Shown here: piece after piece, positions 25,939 through 34,089 of the stretch | Numbering within the stretch: the first letter of the stretch is position 1 | How the letters are laid out: every line of letters begins with the position of its first letter | Virus record (IMG/VR): IMGVR_UViG_3300049846_000568 | Span: 1-64,000 of that record | Length of the DNA: 64,000 nucleotides | Direction: 5' to 3' (one strand) | Source: a virus | The notes under the pieces: generated by a model | The model's database searches: none | Told to the model about the DNA's origin: nothing | The model's input: only the letters and a program-made list of their open reading frames with translations | Position numbers and translations under genes: made by a program

Positions 25939-26200
25939 CCCCGGTGATGTCGTCGGCCAGGCCGTCGTCAACGTGCGGACGTGCGAGCAAAGCAACCCGC
26001 CATGCATGGACGACTACCCCGAGAACGTGTGGCTTTGCCCCGGTTGTCAGGGGGACGGCACCTACAACGCCGAACAGGTGGAAAGAGTGGAACCAAAAGA
26101 CAGTCCTTTTGTGGTCGTCGGACGAGACAACCCAGAAGGGCCGTCGCTTGTTGCTCGTACGGACGGCTACTACCCAGTGGGGGATAAGGAAGATGAGTGA
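25931..26200 (+). CDS. hypothetical Cys protein
   Basis: coupled ORF; GC drops in the 3' half. Confidence 0.5.
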   Translation: MPDPGDVVGQAVVNVRTCEQSNPPCMDDYPENVWLCPGCQGDGTYNAEQVERVEPKDSPFVVVGRDNPEGPSLVARTDGYYPVGDKEDE

Positions 26201-26321
26201 GCGCAAGAAGCCGAAGACAATTGCTGTTATTGGAATTGGTTTCGCCAAGAAGAAGACCCCAAAGGCTAAGGCAAAGAGTGACAAGTAGTTCGTCTCTTAA
26301 GCCGATCAGTCAAGGTAATAC

Positions 26322-26495
26322 ATGGTTCTAAAGAAACACGCTCGACCATCTGATGCTTCTATCAATCAGACGCTTACTAAGTATCAAGCAAAGATAGATG
26401 AGTTGATGGCAGAATTGAAGCGCAAGGATGAAACCATCATCGAGCTCCAAGCCGAGATCTCCTATCTCAAATCCGCTATGAGAAGCGGATACTAA
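26322..26495 (+). CDS. small coiled-coil protein (57 aa)
   Basis: MVLKKHARP..KIDELMAELKRKDETIIELQAEISYLK; AAGG SD. Confidence 0.55.
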   Translation: MVLKKHARPSDASINQTLTKYQAKIDELMAELKRKDETIIELQAEISYLKSAMRSGY

Positions 26496-26498
26496 TCT

Positions 26499-26573
26499 GG
26501 TCCGTTAGTTCAGCCTGGTCTAGAACACTGGCTTGTCACGCCAGCGACACGGGTTCAAATCCCGTACGGACCG
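26499..26573 (+). tRNA. tRNA-Asp(GTC)
   Basis: CTGGC-TT-GTC-AC-GCCAG. Confidence 0.95.
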
Positions 26574-26575
26574 CT

Positions 26576-26629
26576 AGTGAGAGAATTCCCTGGGGCAGTT
26601 AACTCCAGAGGCTGCAGCTCTCACTGCCA
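26576..26629 (+). ncRNA. minihelix-like hairpin RNA ending in G-CCA
   Basis: AGTGAGAG/CTCTCACT stem followed by GCCA, abutting tRNA-Glu. Confidence 0.45.
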
Positions 26630-26705
26630 GCCCCGTTGGTCTAGTTTGGTTTAGGACGTCTGCCTCTCACGCAGAAGATCGCCGGTTCAAATCCGGCACG
26701 GGGTG
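26630..26705 (+). tRNA. tRNA-Glu(CTC)
   Basis: TCTGC-CT-CTC-AC-GCAGA. Confidence 0.95.
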
Positions 26706-26707
26706 CT

Positions 26708-27007
26708 ATGGCTAAGATAGCATCAATCGTCCCAGAAGTTGGTGACGTCATCTACGAATCGTATATGGCGGGTATTCCTCTCCTGGTTGTCGAGGTTAAA
26801 GAGCGTTCGTACGTTTGCAAAACCGTCAATGGTGACACAAAGATTTTGAGTAGGTACTGGACTTCTCGCGGCCCGCTTGGGTCGAGCGAACATGAAGTAA
26901 AGTACTCTTCTTACGTTGACCTTTGTGAGCAGAACGAGCGCAAAGCCAATAACATGCGAGAAAAGCTGAACAAGCTGCTCGCTATAGAAATCTCCACGCC
27001 CTCTTAG
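26708..27007 (+). CDS. hypothetical protein between tRNAs
   Basis: starts 2 nt after tRNA-Glu, stop inside tRNA-Arg. Confidence 0.6.
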   Translation: MAKIASIVPEVGDVIYESYMAGIPLLVVEVKERSYVCKTVNGDTKILSRYWTSRGPLGSSEHEVKYSSYVDLCEQNERKANNMREKLNKLLAIEISTPS

Positions 27008-27071
27008 CTTAATTGGATGAAGCACCTGACTACGGATCAGGAGATTACAGGTTCGAGTCCTGTAGAGGGTG
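26998..27071 (+). tRNA. tRNA-Arg(ACG)
   Basis: CCTGA-CT-ACG-GA-TCAGG. Confidence 0.95.
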
Positions 27072-27092
27072 CAACGAGTAAGAAGTAAAGCC

Positions 27093-27842
27093 ATGAAGAT
27101 CCTAGTATGTGGAGACTGGCACGGAAACACAGTCTTTGTAGAGAACATATTTAACGCCATCGCCCGGGAGGGGTGGGAGGTTGACGTCATCGTACAGGTG
27201 GGCGACTTTGGATTTTGGGAACATAGGGATGAAGGCGTTCACTTTCTCGACTCACTGAGTACCTTCTCCCAGGAATCTGGGATCCCCATCTATTGGGTTG
27301 ACGGCAACCACGAGAACTTTGAAATCTTGTACGACCAGTATCTCAAGGGTCGTTACGATGAGTTCATTGAAATCCGCCCCAGCATCTACTACATCCCAAG
27401 AGGCAAGACCTGGGAGTGGGATGGGGTGAAGTTCATGGGGTTTGGTGGAGCTTACTCCATCGACAAGAATCATCGTACCCCCTATATCTCCTGGTGGCCA
27501 CAAGAAATGGCATCAGACGAAGAGATAGAGCGGGTGAGAAGCAAAAACGAGCAGGTTGATGTTCTCTTCAGCCACGATGTTCCTCAGGGCGTGGACGTTC
27601 TAACAGCCTCTGGTGGTTTTTTGCTACCCATCGCTTCCGCTGAACATTCACGGTACCTGATTCGTCAAGTCGCAGAAGTTGCACGGCCAAAACTCATTGT
27701 CCACGGTCATTACCATTTCAGATATGGGATGTTGTGGGGGGCGCCCTGGGGCGAAGTGAGTGTCATAGGTTTGACCTGTGATGGACGGCAGTTTCGTGCT
27801 GCTACCTATATGCTTGATACTAACGAACTTCTTCCTAGCTAG
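27093..27842 (+). CDS. calcineurin-like metallophosphoesterase
   Basis: GDWHG, GDFG, GNHE, SHD, HGHYH. Confidence 0.92.
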   Translation: MKILVCGDWHGNTVFVENIFNAIAREGWEVDVIVQVGDFGFWEHRDEGVHFLDSLSTFSQESGIPIYWVDGNHENFEILYDQYLKGRYDEFIEIRPSIYYIPRGKTWEWDGVKFMGFGGAYSIDKNHRTPYISWWPQEMASDEEIERVRSKNEQVDVLFSHDVPQGVDVLTASGGFLLPIASAEHSRYLIRQVAEVARPKLIVHGHYHFRYGMLWGAPWGEVSVIGLTCDGRQFRAATYMLDTNELLPS

Positions 27843-27855
27843 ACAAAGAGCAGAC

Positions 27856-28443
27856 ATGATTGCACTGAGCAAAAAGGCCAAGTTTCCTAATAACGCAAAC
27901 ACCGACAACGTTGCCGAGTGTCTTGATGGTCTGTTCGATAGCCTAGACAAGTTCTTCTTTGACCACGAGGTAGATTACCGCTACATTGATCGTCGCGATT
28001 TCGAAGATATACTCGAACGATGCCTTACGGACGACGAGTGGGAAGGCATAAAGCACCAAATCCGTGAGCCCCTCGCACACTTTAGTGAGGCTATCGACAA
28101 TGCCATGGTGGATATCTTGGTCTCTAATGGGCTTTTAGATCCAGAATCTGTCAATGTGGGGTTGGAGCATACGAGCGTGGCGCAACCATCTACATCAACA
28201 TCAGAGACAAGCTGGCATTATTCTCCGGAAGAGGTCTGGGGCACCGGTACCGGCTTTCAGCCCTCGACCGCGTCGACAGGGTCTTGGGGGATCACAAACC
28301 ATTCATCGCCCATGCTTCCAACCACTGTCATGAATTCGGTTCAGCAGCTCGTAGACGACATTTCAAACGTGGTAGTGGGCGGAACCTCCGTTCCACCGCC
28401 CGAGGAGCAAGAAGATCCCGTAGAAGGACCAAGTGATGAGTAA
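27856..28443 (+). CDS. hypothetical protein, low-complexity C-terminus
   Basis: ORF. Confidence 0.6.
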   Translation: MIALSKKAKFPNNANTDNVAECLDGLFDSLDKFFFDHEVDYRYIDRRDFEDILERCLTDDEWEGIKHQIREPLAHFSEAIDNAMVDILVSNGLLDPESVNVGLEHTSVAQPSTSTSETSWHYSPEEVWGTGTGFQPSTASTGSWGITNHSSPMLPTTVMNSVQQLVDDISNVVVGGTSVPPPEEQEDPVEGPSDE

Positions 28444-28657
28444 ACCAATTATCCCTGCTCCAGGTAGTAGAATCCGTCTCATCGAGATGAAAGACGTTTC
28501 CCCCGTGGAGCCCGGTAGTACGGGTACCGTAACCGATTACTCCCACGAAGATCAGGATCATGGTGTTGTGTTTGTGGGCGTCGAGTGGGACAACGGACGC
28601 AGCTTACAACTTGTAGTTGGCTTGGATGAGTGGGAATTCATTAAGAATGAAGGCTAG
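28433..28657 (+). CDS. DUF4314-like protein
   Basis: GSRIRLIEMKD..PGSTGTV..VEWDNGRSL. Confidence 0.7.
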   Translation: MMSKPIIPAPGSRIRLIEMKDVSPVEPGSTGTVTDYSHEDQDHGVVFVGVEWDNGRSLQLVVGLDEWEFIKNEG

Positions 28658-28856
28658 GAAAGTCTACACCAACTCTGAGCTTGAAGACCTAATCGAGAAG
28701 TGGCATACCAGTCACGACGTGGCGTGTAGTCTGTATAGTTACCTTGGTTGGACTCGTGAAGAGTATGAGAATTGGCTGGAAACCAACAGGCAGCCGGGTG
28801 AACTAACTCTTCGTGACAAGTTGAAACTTCATAGAAAGCGCTTGGTTAAAAGGTGA
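28647..28856 (+). CDS. hypothetical protein
   Basis: KWH..LYSYLGWTREEYENW. Confidence 0.6.
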   Translation: MKARKVYTNSELEDLIEKWHTSHDVACSLYSYLGWTREEYENWLETNRQPGELTLRDKLKLHRKRLVKR

Positions 28857-29146
28857 TCAGACCCGGAATCAAACCAGATCCGCGCATGAAGATTCTCACA
28901 GAAAGACCTTCGAGGTACCAGGCGGAGAACACACTACTGGCTGAATACATGGCTGGCCGTGCAATCTACTTTTGCATGCCTGCGTCGTATCCAGAAGAAG
29001 TGCTTGGGCGCGAATTTGCCCTTGAAGAGTGGGACGAAATCATCGAGTCTGGCATTCTCGTGCAGATTTCTGATGATAACGACATCTGGTCTTTGATCAA
29101 TGCGACGCTGCGCGAAAAGCTCTCAAGCATAGGTATAGCGCCTTAA
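28853..29146 (+). CDS. hypothetical protein
   Basis: GTGA overlap. Confidence 0.6.
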   Translation: MIRPGIKPDPRMKILTERPSRYQAENTLLAEYMAGRAIYFCMPASYPEEVLGREFALEEWDEIIESGILVQISDDNDIWSLINATLREKLSSIGIAP

Positions 29147-29150
29147 ACCA

Positions 29151-29237
29151 GGAAGGTTGGCAGAGTCAGGCTTAATGCACCTCCCTGCTAAGGAGGAGTG
29201 GGTAACACCACCACAGGTTCGAATCCTGTACCTTCCG
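29151..29237 (+). tRNA. tRNA-Ser(GCT)
   Basis: CCTCC-CT-GCT-AA-GGAGG, long variable arm. Confidence 0.95.
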
Positions 29238-29310
29238 CTATGGACAATGAACCCTCCAGGTCTCAGAGACATCAAACAACTTTTCCCATCGTGTACACTC
29301 TTGGTCTTCA

Positions 29311-29532
29311 ATGATAAGTTTGAATCGTAAGTCTAAAATCTCCCAAGATGCTCCGTTCGTAATCATGTACACGGTTAGCAATGATGAAAATGGTGAGGGT
29401 CCTTTTGGGTTGTACCAAGACTATGACATAGCTCTTGAACAGGCGTACGACTACGGATTTAAATATGTCTTTAGTCAGCGTTACTATCCTGATGGTGGAT
29501 CCACTCGTCTTGAACGTAGCATTGACTACTAA
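29311..29532 (+). CDS. hypothetical protein
   Basis: ORF. Confidence 0.55.
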   Translation: MISLNRKSKISQDAPFVIMYTVSNDENGEGPFGLYQDYDIALEQAYDYGFKYVFSQRYYPDGGSTRLERSIDY

Positions 29533-29563
29533 GAGGACGAATACAACGAAGACATATAGTCAC

Positions 29564-29651
29564 GGAGGGTTGGCAGAGCGGCCGATTGCACTAGTCTTGA
29601 AAACTAGAGGGTGTCACAGCCCCGTGGGTTCAAATCCCACACCCTCCTCCA
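29564..29651 (+). tRNA. tRNA-Ser(TGA), CCA encoded
   Basis: CTAGT-CT-TGA-AA-ACTAG, long variable arm. Confidence 0.95.
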
Positions 29652-29660
29652 AGGAAATAG

Positions 29661-29957
29661 ATGTTCAACACAGAGTTCTTCACTGGCTTCAAGCCTAACG
29701 AGATACGCACCATTCATAAAGCACTCGTTAATCTCAAAAAGTACTGCTATGCAACGTCTCAAGAGATTAACGAGGATCCGGATCTCGCTAATGTCGACTT
29801 CGACTTCCCAGATTACGGTGGTTTACCAGAGAAGATTTCTGGCAAATTAACTACCGATCAGGTGGATGCAATTCAAGATCTTATTCAATGGGTTGATCCT
29901 GAAAAGGTTACGCTTGAGATGACAGCATATGCGCTAGCTAGTGGGTGGACTTCCTGA
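29661..29957 (+). CDS. hypothetical protein
   Basis: AAGGA SD. Confidence 0.6.
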   Translation: MFNTEFFTGFKPNEIRTIHKALVNLKKYCYATSQEINEDPDLANVDFDFPDYGGLPEKISGKLTTDQVDAIQDLIQWVDPEKVTLEMTAYALASGWTS

Positions 29958-30337
29958 TGTATGATTACACTGGACGTGTCATCCGAGTTGTCGACGGCGA
30001 CACCCTTGACGTAGAGATCGACTTAGGCTTCCACGTCTCTGTAAGGGAGCGGGTTCGTCTAGCTGGCATCAACTGCCCAGAAATCAACACGGACGAGGGC
30101 AAAGCTGCTGCCGAATATGTTAAGGCCTGGGTGTCTGGACTAGATGTTGTGGAGATCAGTACTATAAAGACACCCAAAGGTGACCGTCAGGAGAAGTACG
30201 GACGATACCTGGCCGTCATCATGAAGGGTGACGCTGCTAAACCTTCTGGTTTTAGCTGCCTCAACCAAGACCTTATCAAAGAGAATCACGCAAGCTTTTA
30301 CGGCAAGGTGGACATCGATAAGGTCGTAAACCCATAG
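29957..30337 (+). CDS. thermonuclease (SNase) family nuclease
   Basis: VVDGDT, RVRLAGINCPE, EKYGRYLA. Confidence 0.92.
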   Translation: MYDYTGRVIRVVDGDTLDVEIDLGFHVSVRERVRLAGINCPEINTDEGKAAAEYVKAWVSGLDVVEISTIKTPKGDRQEKYGRYLAVIMKGDAAKPSGFSCLNQDLIKENHASFYGKVDIDKVVNP

Positions 30338-30422
30338 AAGGTTGCTAGAGCGGACGAATAGGCTACCCTGGAAAGGTAGTGTGGCTTCACGGTCACCGTG
30401 GGTTCGAATCCCACACCTTCTG
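30336..30422 (+). tRNA. tRNA-Ser(GGA)
   Basis: CTACC-CT-GGA-AA-GGTAG, long variable arm. Confidence 0.93.
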
Positions 30423-30438
30423 CTGATACAATAAGACT

Positions 30439-31020
30439 ATGATTTACTTTACTTCAGACCTTCACTTTGGTCACGCAAACATTATCAAGTACTGCGACAG
30501 GCCATTCGATAACACCGATGAAATGGCCAAGGCTCTTATCGGAAACTGGAACTCTGTGGTTGACCACGAAGATACGGTTTTTGTGTTGGGCGACTTTGCA
30601 ATGGGGGATCGCGAAGCGAATGTCCCTCTTGCCCGCCACCTAAACGGTAAGAAGATTCTTGTTGCAGGCAACCACGACCACTGCTGGCGTGGGTTAGTAC
30701 CCAAGAAGGGACAGGACTTTGTGGACTGGTGGCGCCAGTTCTTCCTTGACAACGGTTTTACCGCCGTCTTGGACCATGTAGACCTGTACTTCGGGGAGCA
30801 TGATCTGAAGCTCACGCTAAACCATTTCCCTTTTACTGGAGACTCCTACGACGAAGACCGGTACAAGCGGTGGCGTCCAGTAGACGACGGACAATGGGTT
30901 ATCCACGGACACATCCATGACCTCTGGCGCGTAAACGGGCGGATGATCAACGTTGGTTGTGATGTGTGGGACTTTACCCCGGTTCCTATGGAGACGATCC
31001 TAGAACTGATTGAGAGGTAG
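30439..31020 (+). CDS. metallophosphoesterase (phage type)
   Basis: SDLHFGH, GDF, GNHD, HGHIH, INVGCD; TGn-TACAAT 6 nt before ATG. Confidence 0.92.
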   Translation: MIYFTSDLHFGHANIIKYCDRPFDNTDEMAKALIGNWNSVVDHEDTVFVLGDFAMGDREANVPLARHLNGKKILVAGNHDHCWRGLVPKKGQDFVDWWRQFFLDNGFTAVLDHVDLYFGEHDLKLTLNHFPFTGDSYDEDRYKRWRPVDDGQWVIHGHIHDLWRVNGRMINVGCDVWDFTPVPMETILELIER

Positions 31021-31083
31021 TTCAGTTGGCAGAACGCCAGGCTCTGGTCCTGGATGTCGGGGGTTCGAACCCTCCCCTCTCAG
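31011..31083 (+). tRNA. tRNA-Gln(CTG)
   Basis: CCAGG-CT-CTG-GT-CCTGG. Confidence 0.93.
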
Positions 31084-31086
31084 CTC

Positions 31087-31281
31087 ATGAAGAAAAGACC
31101 AAATAGACGCAGGCGCATCTGCAATGGTCGCAAATGCGAACTAGAGTATTCTTTTGAGTACGACTCTTACTATTGCACAAAGCATGATACCTGGATTGAG
31201 GATAGATGTGATGATCCAGAGTGCGTATTTTGTGCAGACCGCCCTGATAATCCCGGAGTAGTAAATGATCAGGCCGACTAA
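31087..31281 (+). CDS. Cys-rich small protein
   Basis: YDSYYC..WIEDRCDDPECVFCADRP. Confidence 0.65.
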   Translation: MKKRPNRRRRICNGRKCELEYSFEYDSYYCTKHDTWIEDRCDDPECVFCADRPDNPGVVNDQAD

Positions 31282-31582
31282 GTCCCATAATGAAGGTTCT
31301 ATTGAGTTTTCAGATGACGTGATCTCCTACGCTTATGCCAGGGATCTACTATGTGAGTCATCCTACGATGGGTGGACGTGTTCACTCCATAAGGGACACA
31401 AGGGCGATCATGAGGGTTGGCCTTCTCATCTCGTAAATAGGAGCAGAAAGCCCGGGAGGAAATGGAAAAAGGTGACGGTCCGAAAGTCGACAAGCGCCAG
31501 CAGATTTGTTTACGTTCCGCGACTTTCTACTAGCAGTGTAACGCTTGGCAGTGCGACCACTACGTGGACTGATCCACAATAA
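31265..31582 (+). CDS. hypothetical protein (C..C..H..H)
   Basis: CSLHKGHKGDH. Confidence 0.55.
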   Translation: MIRPTKSHNEGSIEFSDDVISYAYARDLLCESSYDGWTCSLHKGHKGDHEGWPSHLVNRSRKPGRKWKKVTVRKSTSASRFVYVPRLSTSSVTLGSATTTWTDPQ

Positions 31583-31589
31583 TTACCTT

Positions 31590-31663
31590 ACTGGTGTAGC
31601 TCAGCCGGTTAGAGCGCTACTCTGATAAAGTAGAGGTCACAGGTTCGAGTCCTGTCACCAGTA
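31590..31663 (+). tRNA. tRNA-Ile(GAT)
   Basis: CTACT-CT-GAT-AA-AGTAG. Confidence 0.95.
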
Positions 31664-31677
31664 CCGCAATACAACAA

Positions 31678-31751
31678 GGTTCTGTAGCTCAGTTCGGAAG
31701 AGCGGCCGGCTGAAAACCGGTAGGTCGGTGGTTCGAATCCACCCGGAACCA
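31678..31751 (+). tRNA. tRNA-Phe(GAA)
   Basis: GCCGG-CT-GAA-AA-CCGGT. Confidence 0.95.
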
Positions 31752-31756
31752 CTCAA

Positions 31757-31894
31757 GCCCGCCCAGGAAAACGCTTTGCGTTGGGATAGCCAGATGGGTG
31801 TCATAGGCTGCCAAATACCAACTATGACAGGCCGGTAGGAAATGGTTTGGCTAAGCTCATCAATTGGCGAGAAGTTCGATTCTTCTCACGGGTA
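31757..31894 (+). ncRNA. 138-nt tRNA-like structured RNA
   Basis: GCCCG/CGGGT-A terminal stem, AGAAG-TTCGATT-CTTCT T-arm, large pseudoknotted insert. Confidence 0.65.
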
Positions 31895-31896
31895 CT

Positions 31897-31970
31897 GTGG
31901 CCGTAGCTTAGATGGTTAAAGCGTCGGGATGTGGCCCCGAAGATCGTGGGTTCGAGTCCCACCGGTCACC
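31897..31970 (+). tRNA. tRNA-His(GTG)
   Basis: TCGGG-AT-GTG-GC-CCCGA, C73. Confidence 0.93.
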
Positions 31971-31982
31971 CTTGGAGGTGCA

Positions 31983-32228
31983 ATGAAGTTCGAATACGAT
32001 AATGAAGCATTGGCTGTATTGTTGACGGGAGAAGACATCCCCAGTCCACATCAGATGGCCCTGACTAGGGTCATCATCGGGTTACTGGAGAAGAACCCAG
32101 AGTTCATACGGGCAGTGTACGAGCAGTGTATGTGCTCGTCGGGTTTTCTGGATAGATTTACGAAGGTGCTAGAAGATTTTGGCGCCTTTCAGGCCATAAA
32201 CGATGTCGCACTTTACGAGCCGGTATGA
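31983..32228 (+). CDS. hypothetical protein
   Basis: GGAGG SD. Confidence 0.6.
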   Translation: MKFEYDNEALAVLLTGEDIPSPHQMALTRVIIGLLEKNPEFIRAVYEQCMCSSGFLDRFTKVLEDFGAFQAINDVALYEPV

Positions 32229-32491
32229 AGCCAACACCTATAACCGAAATCTTATCTTGGGATAATGACCACTTCAATATGGTCATCTACGGTGCCGAGA
32301 TTGAATGGGTCGTAGAACTTCAGGAAAGAATGATAGAGTTCAGCGAGGCTCTATTCACTCCTGGTTCTATAGAATCCTACCGAAGAGATAGATACGATTT
32401 GCACGATTTGTGTGTGGTTCGTCTTCGCGCCATAAGGAAAGTCCTACATGGCTACCACCCAGATGATGACGTAAAGGCAGTGAGTGCTTAA
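32225..32491 (+). CDS. hypothetical protein
   Basis: ATGA overlap. Confidence 0.6.
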   Translation: MKPTPITEILSWDNDHFNMVIYGAEIEWVVELQERMIEFSEALFTPGSIESYRRDRYDLHDLCVVRLRAIRKVLHGYHPDDDVKAVSA

Positions 32492-32687
32492 GTACACCAT
32501 CGAAGTAGAGCTTGAAGCCGATGATGAGAACATCACCGCCGCTGTTGTTTCGAGCTTCTACATCAAGATGCTTGAAGCCTTAGCCCTGCAAGGGTGTACA
32601 AATCTCACGGCTTCCCTAAATGGCAATGGACTGCCAGACCCAATCGAAATAGAACACAATCCAGTTAATTTCGAGTGGGGAAACTAG
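32484..32687 (+). CDS. hypothetical protein
   Basis: coupled ORF. Confidence 0.55.
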   Translation: MLKYTIEVELEADDENITAAVVSSFYIKMLEALALQGCTNLTASLNGNGLPDPIEIEHNPVNFEWGN

Positions 32688-32719
32688 TACTATGTATGAC
32701 ATGAGCTTTTGGAGGTTTC

Positions 32720-32893
32720 ATGTCAGACAGGTACGACTTCCTTCGTCTTAGGGTAGAAGAATACTTCGACGTAGTGCTTCATGTCTTTGAGGCTAGTAAG
32801 CATGATTTCACGGGCTGCCGCAGATGCTTTCTGCCTGAGCGCCATCCAGTTCACTTAGAGGTACAAGATGGCAGGGCAGGGCGCACGGAATAG
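32720..32893 (+). CDS. small Zn-finger protein
   Basis: GGAGG SD; CRRC..HPVH. Confidence 0.5.
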   Translation: MSDRYDFLRLRVEEYFDVVLHVFEASKHDFTGCRRCFLPERHPVHLEVQDGRAGRTE

Positions 32894-33233
32894 ACGCAAG
32901 ATCCAGCGAGCCAAAGAGCGCGACCAACAGCGTCGTCCTTATGGCAGACAGAATCTTGAGGCCCGGTATGCCCAGGTTGGCGGGAAGCACTTCTACATCT
33001 GGGGAGAAACAGCTACATTCAAGTCTCTTAGAAGGTCCCAACCTTTGGGGCCTTTTTGTTATGTGCGCATGGCTTCTGAGATGGTGTTCGTTAACAAGAC
33101 GCCATTCAGCGAAGAGAGTATTGCTGCTTGGTACGACGAAGACAGGGGGATGTGGATAATTAACCACAGAGACGCTGACCCACGCGGCTACTACGAGGTG
33201 TTGTTTTCAGTTGAGCCACCAAAAACCCAATAG
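32868..33233 (+). CDS. hypothetical protein
   Basis: GAGG SD. Confidence 0.6.
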   Translation: MAGQGARNRRKIQRAKERDQQRRPYGRQNLEARYAQVGGKHFYIWGETATFKSLRRSQPLGPFCYVRMASEMVFVNKTPFSEESIAAWYDEDRGMWIINHRDADPRGYYEVLFSVEPPKTQ

Positions 33234-33777
33234 GGTTTATCTATGGAATAGCAACGTAGATAACCCTACTCCTCCACCAGACCCCAACGCCAACCAGTAC
33301 ACCCCTAAGCCAGAAGAGATTGTGTTTGAGTGCGCCCCTGAGGCCGCAAATCTGGTCACCTCTGAGGTTGCTGGTAAGGCCAAGATTCACGCCCCCGTCA
33401 TCGACTTTGACATCCCCATCATGGCTGTGCCTTCCTCTCAAATGGGGCACTGGCACCTCTACATTGATGGAGAGTGTTCAGATGAAATGCACTTTGAAAT
33501 CCTCGACACCCTCGCAAAAGCAGGATTCGTAGAGGAGGGTTATGCCAAGGCTTCCAGAACCAAGGGTTACAGCGCTGTGCGCCCCCCTGGTGTCAAGAAG
33601 CCTAACGCAGATGAAAGCGTAGCTACTCTCCGCATGGCGCATGCCATGACATTGTCAGAAGTGTTCCTATTAGAATGCAAGCTACAAGACGCGTTGAAGC
33701 GTATAGAAGAGCTTGAAGCAGAGAATCAAAAACTCACCTCGGCACTCGACAGTGCCCAAGCACACTCTTGGACTTAA
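33211..33777 (+). CDS. hypothetical protein with C-terminal coiled coil
   Basis: HAPVIDFD..PSS..GHWHLYID. Confidence 0.65.
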   Translation: MSHQKPNRVYLWNSNVDNPTPPPDPNANQYTPKPEEIVFECAPEAANLVTSEVAGKAKIHAPVIDFDIPIMAVPSSQMGHWHLYIDGECSDEMHFEILDTLAKAGFVEEGYAKASRTKGYSAVRPPGVKKPNADESVATLRMAHAMTLSEVFLLECKLQDALKRIEELEAENQKLTSALDSAQAHSWT

Positions 33778-33780
33778 CCT

Positions 33781-34089
33781 ATGACTACTAAGCGACAGCA
33801 GCGAATGGATAATAAGTACCGGGGACAGCTTCTCTGCGAGAACTGCAACCGTTGGACCTCCGTTCCTATGGACGTATGGCGCGAGGCGCTTAAGAACTAC
33901 CGTGAACGGGGTACCCAGTACATCTGTCTGTGCGATCGCAGAACCTGTAAGATGACCCGTCCAGAAGGCCTTCTGGATAGGCTAAGTCCTCGGCAGAGAG
34001 ACAACATCATCTATGCCACGAATTACAACTCTTCGTCCCAAAAGGATCAAGAGAATCCACGTAAACAAGCACATAATCTCTTCGAATAA
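33781..34089 (+). CDS. Cys-rich hypothetical protein
   Basis: CENC..CLC. Confidence 0.5.
   Translation: MTTKRQQRMDNKYRGQLLCENCNRWTSVPMDVWREALKNYRERGTQYICLCDRRTCKMTRPEGLLDRLSPRQRDNIIYATNYNSSSQKDQENPRKQAHNLFE

Follow-up and report, generated by a model that had tools for sequence, protein, structure and literature searches.

Stable RNAs shaped like tRNAs have been known from the tRNA clusters of phages T4 and T5 for about fifty years, and they have no assigned function. RNAC of T4 (species 1 RNA, rnaC; NC_000866, 70908-71046) is 139 nt long, and its gene lies within the tRNA cluster in the orientation of the tRNAs. In T4 relatives it takes up a tRNA slot with spacers of approximately 6-8 nt, and in phage EcS1 the order is tRNA-Phe, RNAC, tRNA-Trp. 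RNAC ends in an imperfect terminal helix and carries a canonical T arm 8-9 nt from its 3' end, with approximately 105 nt of other folded RNA replacing the decoding part. RNA1 and RNA2 of T5 (NC_005859, 30501-30644 and 32959-33083), annotated as 'tRNA-like stable RNA with unknown functions', measure 125-144 nt and lie in a phage tRNA cluster; each is shaped like a tRNA and combines an acceptor helix and a T arm with a large insert. In reviews, the roles of T4 RNAC and RNAD are given as unknown (PMC3014915, PMC9697503). None of the T4 and T5 tRNA-shaped stable RNAs has a match in Rfam 15.

Two other described RNAs share parts of this design. In tmRNA (SsrA), the body is unlike a tRNA and holds a short inner frame, and it is enclosed by an acceptor/T-arm domain that resembles a tRNA but has no D stem. 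YrlA (Rfam RF02553), which occurs in bacteria and some phages, mimics a tRNA, and its own ends lie in a Ro-binding stem, not in an acceptor-like helix.

Here we document a 138-nt RNA gene, under selection and with a tRNA-like shell, that is encoded between two tRNA genes of an uncultured lake phage. It resembles RNAC in its length (138 vs 139 nt), in its slot on the tRNA strand of a tRNA array, in its imperfect terminal helix, in the distance of its T arm from the 3' end and in the replacement of the decoding part by other folded RNA. With the T5 RNAs it shares the combination of acceptor helix, T arm and large insert, with tmRNA an enclosing acceptor/T-arm domain without a D stem and a short inner frame, and with YrlA the mimicry of a tRNA.

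The tRNA array and the element between tRNA-Phe and tRNA-His

The stretch of DNA analyzed here, which we call the window, comprises positions 1-64,000 of a contig of 145.8 kb from an uncultured virus. The contig is estimated to be 69% complete, and our results on absent genes cover these ~146 kb. DNA identical to the window was found in lake and sediment metagenomes from three studies, and three lake/sediment DNA runs with this stretch show 0 variants inside 31757-31894; the runs listed with this DNA include none of RNA. The phage polymerase is of the DnaE type, with actinophages as its nearest isolates at merely 38% identity, and a close relative encodes an Rv2525c-type lysin; on these two grounds, the host is probably actinobacterial.

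The window carries 18 tRNA genes, all on the + strand, between 377 and 31971 and dispersed among small, tightly packed ORFs. CCA follows merely two of the 18 tRNAs, and in most the discriminator is followed by C and then by T or A. This common 3' context suggests RNase Z-type processing plus CCA addition. Genes for SmpB, TROVE, RtcB, RNA ligase or a CCA enzyme were not found in the 146 kb of the contig.

Near the end of this array, tRNA-Phe and tRNA-His are separated by a gap that contains no ORF and is filled by the element. It starts 5 nt past tRNA-Phe and ends 2 nt ahead of tRNA-His, on the tRNA strand, so that the tRNA-like spacing remarked on in the first-pass annotation of this DNA is borne out. 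Its features, with those of its neighbors, are as follows (L041 denotes the contig of a related phage, described below).

31678-31752, + strand: tRNA-Phe(GAA), upstream neighbor, called by ARAGORN and Rfam
31757-31894, + strand: whole tRNA-shaped RNA gene, 138 nt, filling the ORF-free tRNA-Phe/tRNA-His gap; homolog in L041
31757-31761, + strand: acceptor-like helix, 5' strand GCCCG, pairing with 31889-31893; pair probabilities 0.93-1.0
31762-31785, + strand: first arm, with a CCCA/TGGG helix (31762-31765 with 31782-31785)
31766-31770, + strand: GGAAA bulge of the first arm, identical in L041
31771-31781, + strand: distal hairpin of the first arm, variable, 11 nt
31794-31838, + strand: 14-codon ATG-to-TAG frame, open in the window and in L041
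31796-31861, + strand: conserved core, 61/66 positions identical to L041 (92.4%)
31870-31886, + strand: T arm AGAAG-TTCGATT-CTTCT, canonical, with a 5-bp stem, a G-C pair closing the loop and the loop UUCGAUU
31889-31894, + strand: acceptor-like helix, 3' strand CGGGT, and discriminator-like A; C and then T follow the A
31897-31971, + strand: tRNA-His(GTG), downstream neighbor, called by ARAGORN and Rfam

The end helix with its unpaired A and the canonical T arm had both been picked out from the letters alone in the first-pass annotation, and both stand, as do the coordinates of all the other helices that it listed. The T stem extends to 6 bp (31869-31887), of which a tRNA-like reading uses 5 bp. 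At 5 bp, the terminal helix is two pairs shorter than the 7-bp acceptor stem of a tRNA, and C-A and C-C mismatches adjoin it in both phages. The A-C-T end of the element agrees with the 3' context of most tRNAs of the array, and it lacks an encoded CCA. The + strand has 21 copies of the T-arm motif, of which 18 lie inside called tRNAs, with ~2.1 expected per genome on both strands. The chance of meeting it in this 144-nt gap is ~1e-3, a figure that leaves out the register of the T arm with the gap end and the 5-bp pairing of the ends. Because this motif is rare outside tRNAs and because the helices show compensatory changes in L041, the shell of the element is beyond chance. Of the tRNA cloverleaf, with its D arm, anticodon arm with a 7-nt loop, variable region, T arm and 7-bp acceptor stem, the element retains the T arm and a 5-bp acceptor helix. 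A T-loop/D-loop elbow would thus lack its D arm, and no anticodon arm was found by ARAGORN in its standard, intron and mitochondrial settings or among 1705 single-deletion variants. With no anticodon arm, the element cannot decode.

Other spacers in these arrays are structured as well. The 55-nt spacer between tRNA-Asp and tRNA-Glu (26575-26629) has a 9-bp terminal helix and an encoded CCA at its end. Its counterpart in a relative (L039:9726-9780) is 80% identical, with compensatory changes in both helices, and this spacer is likely another real small tRNA-end mimic. The spacer between two tRNA-Gly genes (22199-22318) folds very strongly (-52.8 kcal/mol, z-score -5.15), and in the same relative (L039:5735-5855; 64% identity) its 3' hairpin is maintained by paired changes. 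In another lake phage, which has ~38 tRNAs, a miniature tRNA-like unit of 58 nt lies between the genes for tRNA-Asn and tRNA-Gly (L047:3114-3171, also L048:2763-2820). This unit joins an acceptor helix of 5-6 bp to a pair of tiny hairpins and a T arm, and its CCA is encoded; it is uncalled by ARAGORN and weakly matched by our model R3 (16.8 bits, E 0.046).

A homolog in a related lake phage

With a covariance model of the element's single sequence, we identified a homolog at L041:2729-2882 (103.6 bits, E 4e-22). L041 is a 24-kb Logan contig from a related lake phage, and it was reached via the phosphoesterase gene 0.7 kb upstream, whose homolog is 70% identical. The first-pass annotation had named lack of conservation as grounds for rejecting an RNA gene here; the related phage has a homolog with a covarying shell. 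The genes for tRNA-Ser, Gln, Ile, Phe and His follow in equal order on L041 and the window, and the homolog again lies between Phe and His, set off by spacers of 5 nt and 2 nt and ending in A-C-T, as in the window. The Ile-Phe spacer measures 12 nt in the window (31666-31677) vs 205 nt in L041 (2445-2649), where the insert holds a small cysteine-rich ORF. To judge from this comparison, the array is fluid and the Phe-X-His block is fixed. Bacterial tRNA-His usually encodes G-1; position -1 of the adjoining tRNA-His is T, not G, in both phages (window 31896-31897; L041:2884-2885).

From the window to L041, the parts of the element and its surroundings compare as follows.

Acceptor helix: pair 2 from C-G to U-A, pair 1 from G-U to G-C
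T stem: two pairs changed on both sides, A-U to G-C and G-C to U-A; the loop retains UUCRA
First-arm helix: retained (A-U to G-U), with an identical GGAAA bulge
First-arm distal hairpin: 11 nt vs a different 28-nt hairpin
T arm: 68% identity
Adjacent coding DNA: 63-75% identity
tRNAs: Ile 73%, His 85%, Gln 88%, Phe 91%, Ser 97% identity

Within the shell, three pairs are thus changed on both sides, one in the acceptor helix and two in the T stem. The pair closing the T loop in L041 is U-A, not the G53-C61 that is near-universal in tRNAs. Measured against coding-level identity, the conservation of the core has a binomial p of 1e-5 to 3e-4. Together, the compensatory changes of the shell and the 92% identity of the core argue that the element is a selected RNA gene and not a dead tRNA, its shell constrained in shape and its core in sequence, on the evidence of two copies (window and L041) from a single small phage lineage.

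The minimum-energy fold of the element (-47.2 kcal/mol; folding z-score -2.28 for the whole molecule) is a four-way junction of the terminal helix, the first arm (31762-31785), a long branched arm (31789-31868) and the 6-bp T stem. For the interior, the first-pass annotation had drawn a 9-bp helix, an 8-bp hairpin and a pseudoknot. The 9-bp helix (31787-31795/31845-31853) is there as a pairing, but it fares poorly as a fold: its ensemble probability is 0.07, the best fold containing it is 2.8 kcal/mol worse, and a 9-bp helix allowing G-U pairs arises in 32% of shuffles. Between the window and L041, two of its pairs change compatibly on one side and one pair is broken. The 8-bp hairpin (31799-31806/31822-31829) is likewise correctly placed, and a perfect hairpin of this length is rare in shuffles (4.5%), but it acquires an A-C mismatch in L041. 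The 5-bp pseudoknot between CTGCC and GGTAG (31808-31812/31834-31838) shows one change from C-G to U-G in L041. Because 64% of shuffles contain a chance equivalent, it is not evidence. Of the inner helices in the minimum-energy fold (31789-31799 with 31855-31868), one pair is compensatory in L041 (31792 with 31865) and 2-3 pairs break, including two end pairs. RNAalifold on the window and L041 pair yields a different inner pairing, including UACC 31816-31819 with GGUA 31834-31837. Two sequences cannot decide among these competing inner folds.

Searches beyond L041 returned no further copy. Blastn with the element as query yielded T-arm-sized matches alone among 50,697 phage records, and exact-word and pattern scans of viral contigs and bacterial genomes contained no copy. 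A scan for the D-arm word of tRNA-His led to 20 AT-rich phage arrays, all unrelated, and one metagenome scan led to an unrelated tRNA-Lys. Relatives identified by their DnaE (47-65% identity) share the replication module and have no tRNAs. The ORF directly downstream (31983-32228) found no homolog, ten further contigs reached via eight other phosphoesterase homologs hold no copy, and there is no paralog within the 146-kb contig. A 12-bit hit of the element's single-sequence model at L003:5418-5538 was set aside as noise.

Comparison with tRNA, tmRNA, YrlA and the T4 and T5 stable RNAs

ARAGORN made no call on the element in its standard, intron, tmRNA or mitochondrial modes, and Rfam 15 gave no match at gathering scores. 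When Rfam was run in E-value mode, it returned T-arm scraps alone, among them YrlA at 17.6 bits (gathering 69) and beta-tmRNA at 8.3 bits, and the tRNA model RF00005 did not match the element in the E-value listing. The families that the first-pass annotation had singled out for such a scan, tmRNA, YrlA and others, are therefore all unmatched. Single deletions of stretches of at least 30 nt gave 0/1705 variants called as tRNA by ARAGORN, and the element is thus not a tRNA with an intron or insertion. At a 70% threshold, ARAGORN reported a 'tRNA-Met(CAU)' at 31820-31895, which we rejected: its acceptor and D stems are mismatched, its variable region spans 1 nt, C occupies position 37 and the ensemble probability of its anticodon stem is zero.

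The tmRNA mode of ARAGORN did not detect the element at a lowered threshold either. The 3-70 pair is C-G in both phages, not G-U, as the first-pass annotation had correctly observed, and it was also right to call the element too short for tmRNA; to our knowledge, it is far shorter than any tmRNA. Unlike tmRNA, then, the element has no G3-U70, no SmpB gene in 146 kb and no model match, and its pseudoknot is unsupported. An alternative tag frame with a GCU start loses its stop in L041. From YrlA the element differs in its score (17.6 vs 69 bits), in a match that extends into tRNA-His and in that Ro60/TROVE and RtcB genes were not found in the 146 kb, ~69% of the genome.

The RNAC insert consists of two covarying hairpins that align to D-arm and anticodon-arm positions, unlike the element. 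A covariance model of T4 RNAC and four diverged relatives (model R2), run with filters off over window positions 19000-34000, left the element at 31757-31894 unmatched at E up to 10; this model matches ordinary tRNAs weakly. Global alignment of the element to T4 RNAC gave a z-score of 1.5. Both contain AGGA...CTTTGC (positions 9-23), which we take as chance because the structural contexts differ. By these comparisons, the element is not homologous to T4 RNAC, and membership in the RNAC family fails. The T5 RNAs have a recognizable D arm with GG, and none is visible in the element. The single-sequence model R1, which represents the element only, has no match in the T5 tRNA region.

Set against the known stable RNAs as a whole, the element lacks a D arm, stacks acceptor and T helices of 5+6 bp and not 7+5, and has a nearly invariant core. 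In kind it agrees with them: in both phages it occupies a tRNA slot in the orientation of the tRNAs, and it is a selected acceptor/T-arm mimic without an anticodon. As far as such comparisons reach, the element is a new, non-homologous example of the tRNA-like stable RNAs of phage tRNA clusters. The proposal of the first-pass annotation that it is a tRNA-mimicking non-coding RNA is supported by the lack of an Rfam 15 or ARAGORN match, the conservation in L041 and the covariation of the shell. The further suggestion of a new class does not hold, since tRNA-like stable RNAs in phage tRNA slots have long been known from T4 and T5.

Proposed processing and role, and the alternatives

We propose that the element is a small RNA gene of the tRNA operon, excised by the tRNA-processing enzymes, in which the shell frames a conserved, non-decoding core; we put the probability of this reading at about 0.68. 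The processing route, CCA addition, stability and binding role that we infer for the element run as follows. It would most likely share a transcript with tRNA-Ile, tRNA-Phe and tRNA-His. The acceptor/T-arm minihelix of tRNAs is what RNase P, the enzymes of the 3' end and the CCA-adding enzyme recognize, and since the terminal helix and T arm imitate this minihelix, the element may be excised as a unit. RNase P would cut at G31757, the 3' tRNA-end pathway would cut after A31894 and CCA would then be added, releasing an RNA of ~138 nt, probably CCA-tailed. The tRNA-like shell would serve as a frame for processing and stability. The 66-nt core would be the working part and would probably act as a tRNA mimic or decoy that binds a partner, either protein or RNA; its nearly frozen sequence suggests that binding of the partner is sequence-specific. 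Complementarity to antisense targets in the phage genome is at chance level (best E 0.23).

The rival explanations differ in what they make of the core. If the element were a structured operon spacer, it would aid the processing or folding of the neighboring pre-tRNAs and be degraded once excised, having no role of its own. The Gly-Gly spacer with its z-score of -5.15 and the Asp-Glu minihelix are likewise structured and conserved in a relative, as this explanation would have it. However, a mere spacer needs no 66-nt core at 92% identity, above tRNA-Ile, Gln, His and Phe, and the Ile-Phe spacer of the same array has been free to vary between 12 nt and 205 nt; we think this origin unlikely. A decaying tRNA gene or recombination scar, in which the 3' half of a tRNA was fused to unrelated sequence, could explain why the T arm and 3' acceptor strand share an identical 21-nt stretch with a phage tRNA-Lys(UUU) from an unrelated metagenome array and match a tRNA-Arg of Vibrio phages at 21/22 positions. 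Yet tRNA genes are so numerous in the collection that a 21-nt match is expected by chance. The acceptor and T helices, moreover, are maintained by compensatory changes in L041, the non-tRNA core is the most conserved part and no single deletion restores a tRNA, all of which makes a scar very unlikely.

The core might also be conserved for a peptide of 14 residues encoded at 31794-31838, with the RNA structure incidental, or, in a variant of this idea, the element might be a miniature tmRNA-like RNA with the frame as its tag. From ATG to TAG the frame stays open in both phages, two of four substitutions within it are synonymous, and GGGA or GGGG lies 7 nt ahead of the ATG at 31794. Against this, survival of the frame is expected by chance at 92% identity, the proportion of synonymous changes is not significant and the ribosome-binding sequence is weak. 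Conservation extends 23 nt beyond the TAG, and coding is therefore needless to explain that of the core. The tmRNA-like variant has to contend with the C-G pair at 3-70, the silence of the ARAGORN and Rfam tmRNA models, the absence of SmpB from the 146 kb and the missing stop of the other candidate tag frame in L041. We regard a peptide or tag as highly improbable.

The surroundings of the element bear on what the core of a tRNA-operon small RNA might do. The window encodes phosphoesterases at 27069-27842 and 30439-31020, with homologs on contigs L042, L045, L049, L050 and L051. RtcB or an RNA ligase is encoded on the contigs with phosphoesterase homologs, directly adjoining in L049, and genes for RlaP, peptidyl-tRNA hydrolase and an RF-1-like protein occur there likewise, a neighborhood that looks like an RNA-repair and translation module. 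In its 146 kb, the window phage has two phosphoesterases and RlaP, with no ligase. The 159-kb phage contig L045 also carries an ARAGORN tRNA with a CTA anticodon (L045:6769-6841; amber-reading suppressor type, labeled Pyl). Since the region is tied to RNA-end repair through the neighbors of phosphoesterase homologs elsewhere, a role of the element in conflicts over tRNA is plausible. The more specific idea that the 66-nt core is a decoy or inhibitor of a host tRNA-binding factor, such as a tRNA-cleaving defense nuclease or a translation or tRNA-repair enzyme, is a doubtful one at present. If true, it would be the first function for the tRNA-shaped RNAs of phages, which have been unexplained since T4 RNAC.

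The same design as in the T4 and T5 stable RNAs appears here in an unrelated lake phage, probably of actinobacteria. A frame that evolves by compensation around a near-frozen core suggests that the core does the work and that the shell is a handle for processing and stability, and the small conserved core is a concrete bait for identifying a partner. If the pattern is general, the tRNA arrays of phages may hide a layer of RNAs that do not decode and that gene finders pass over.
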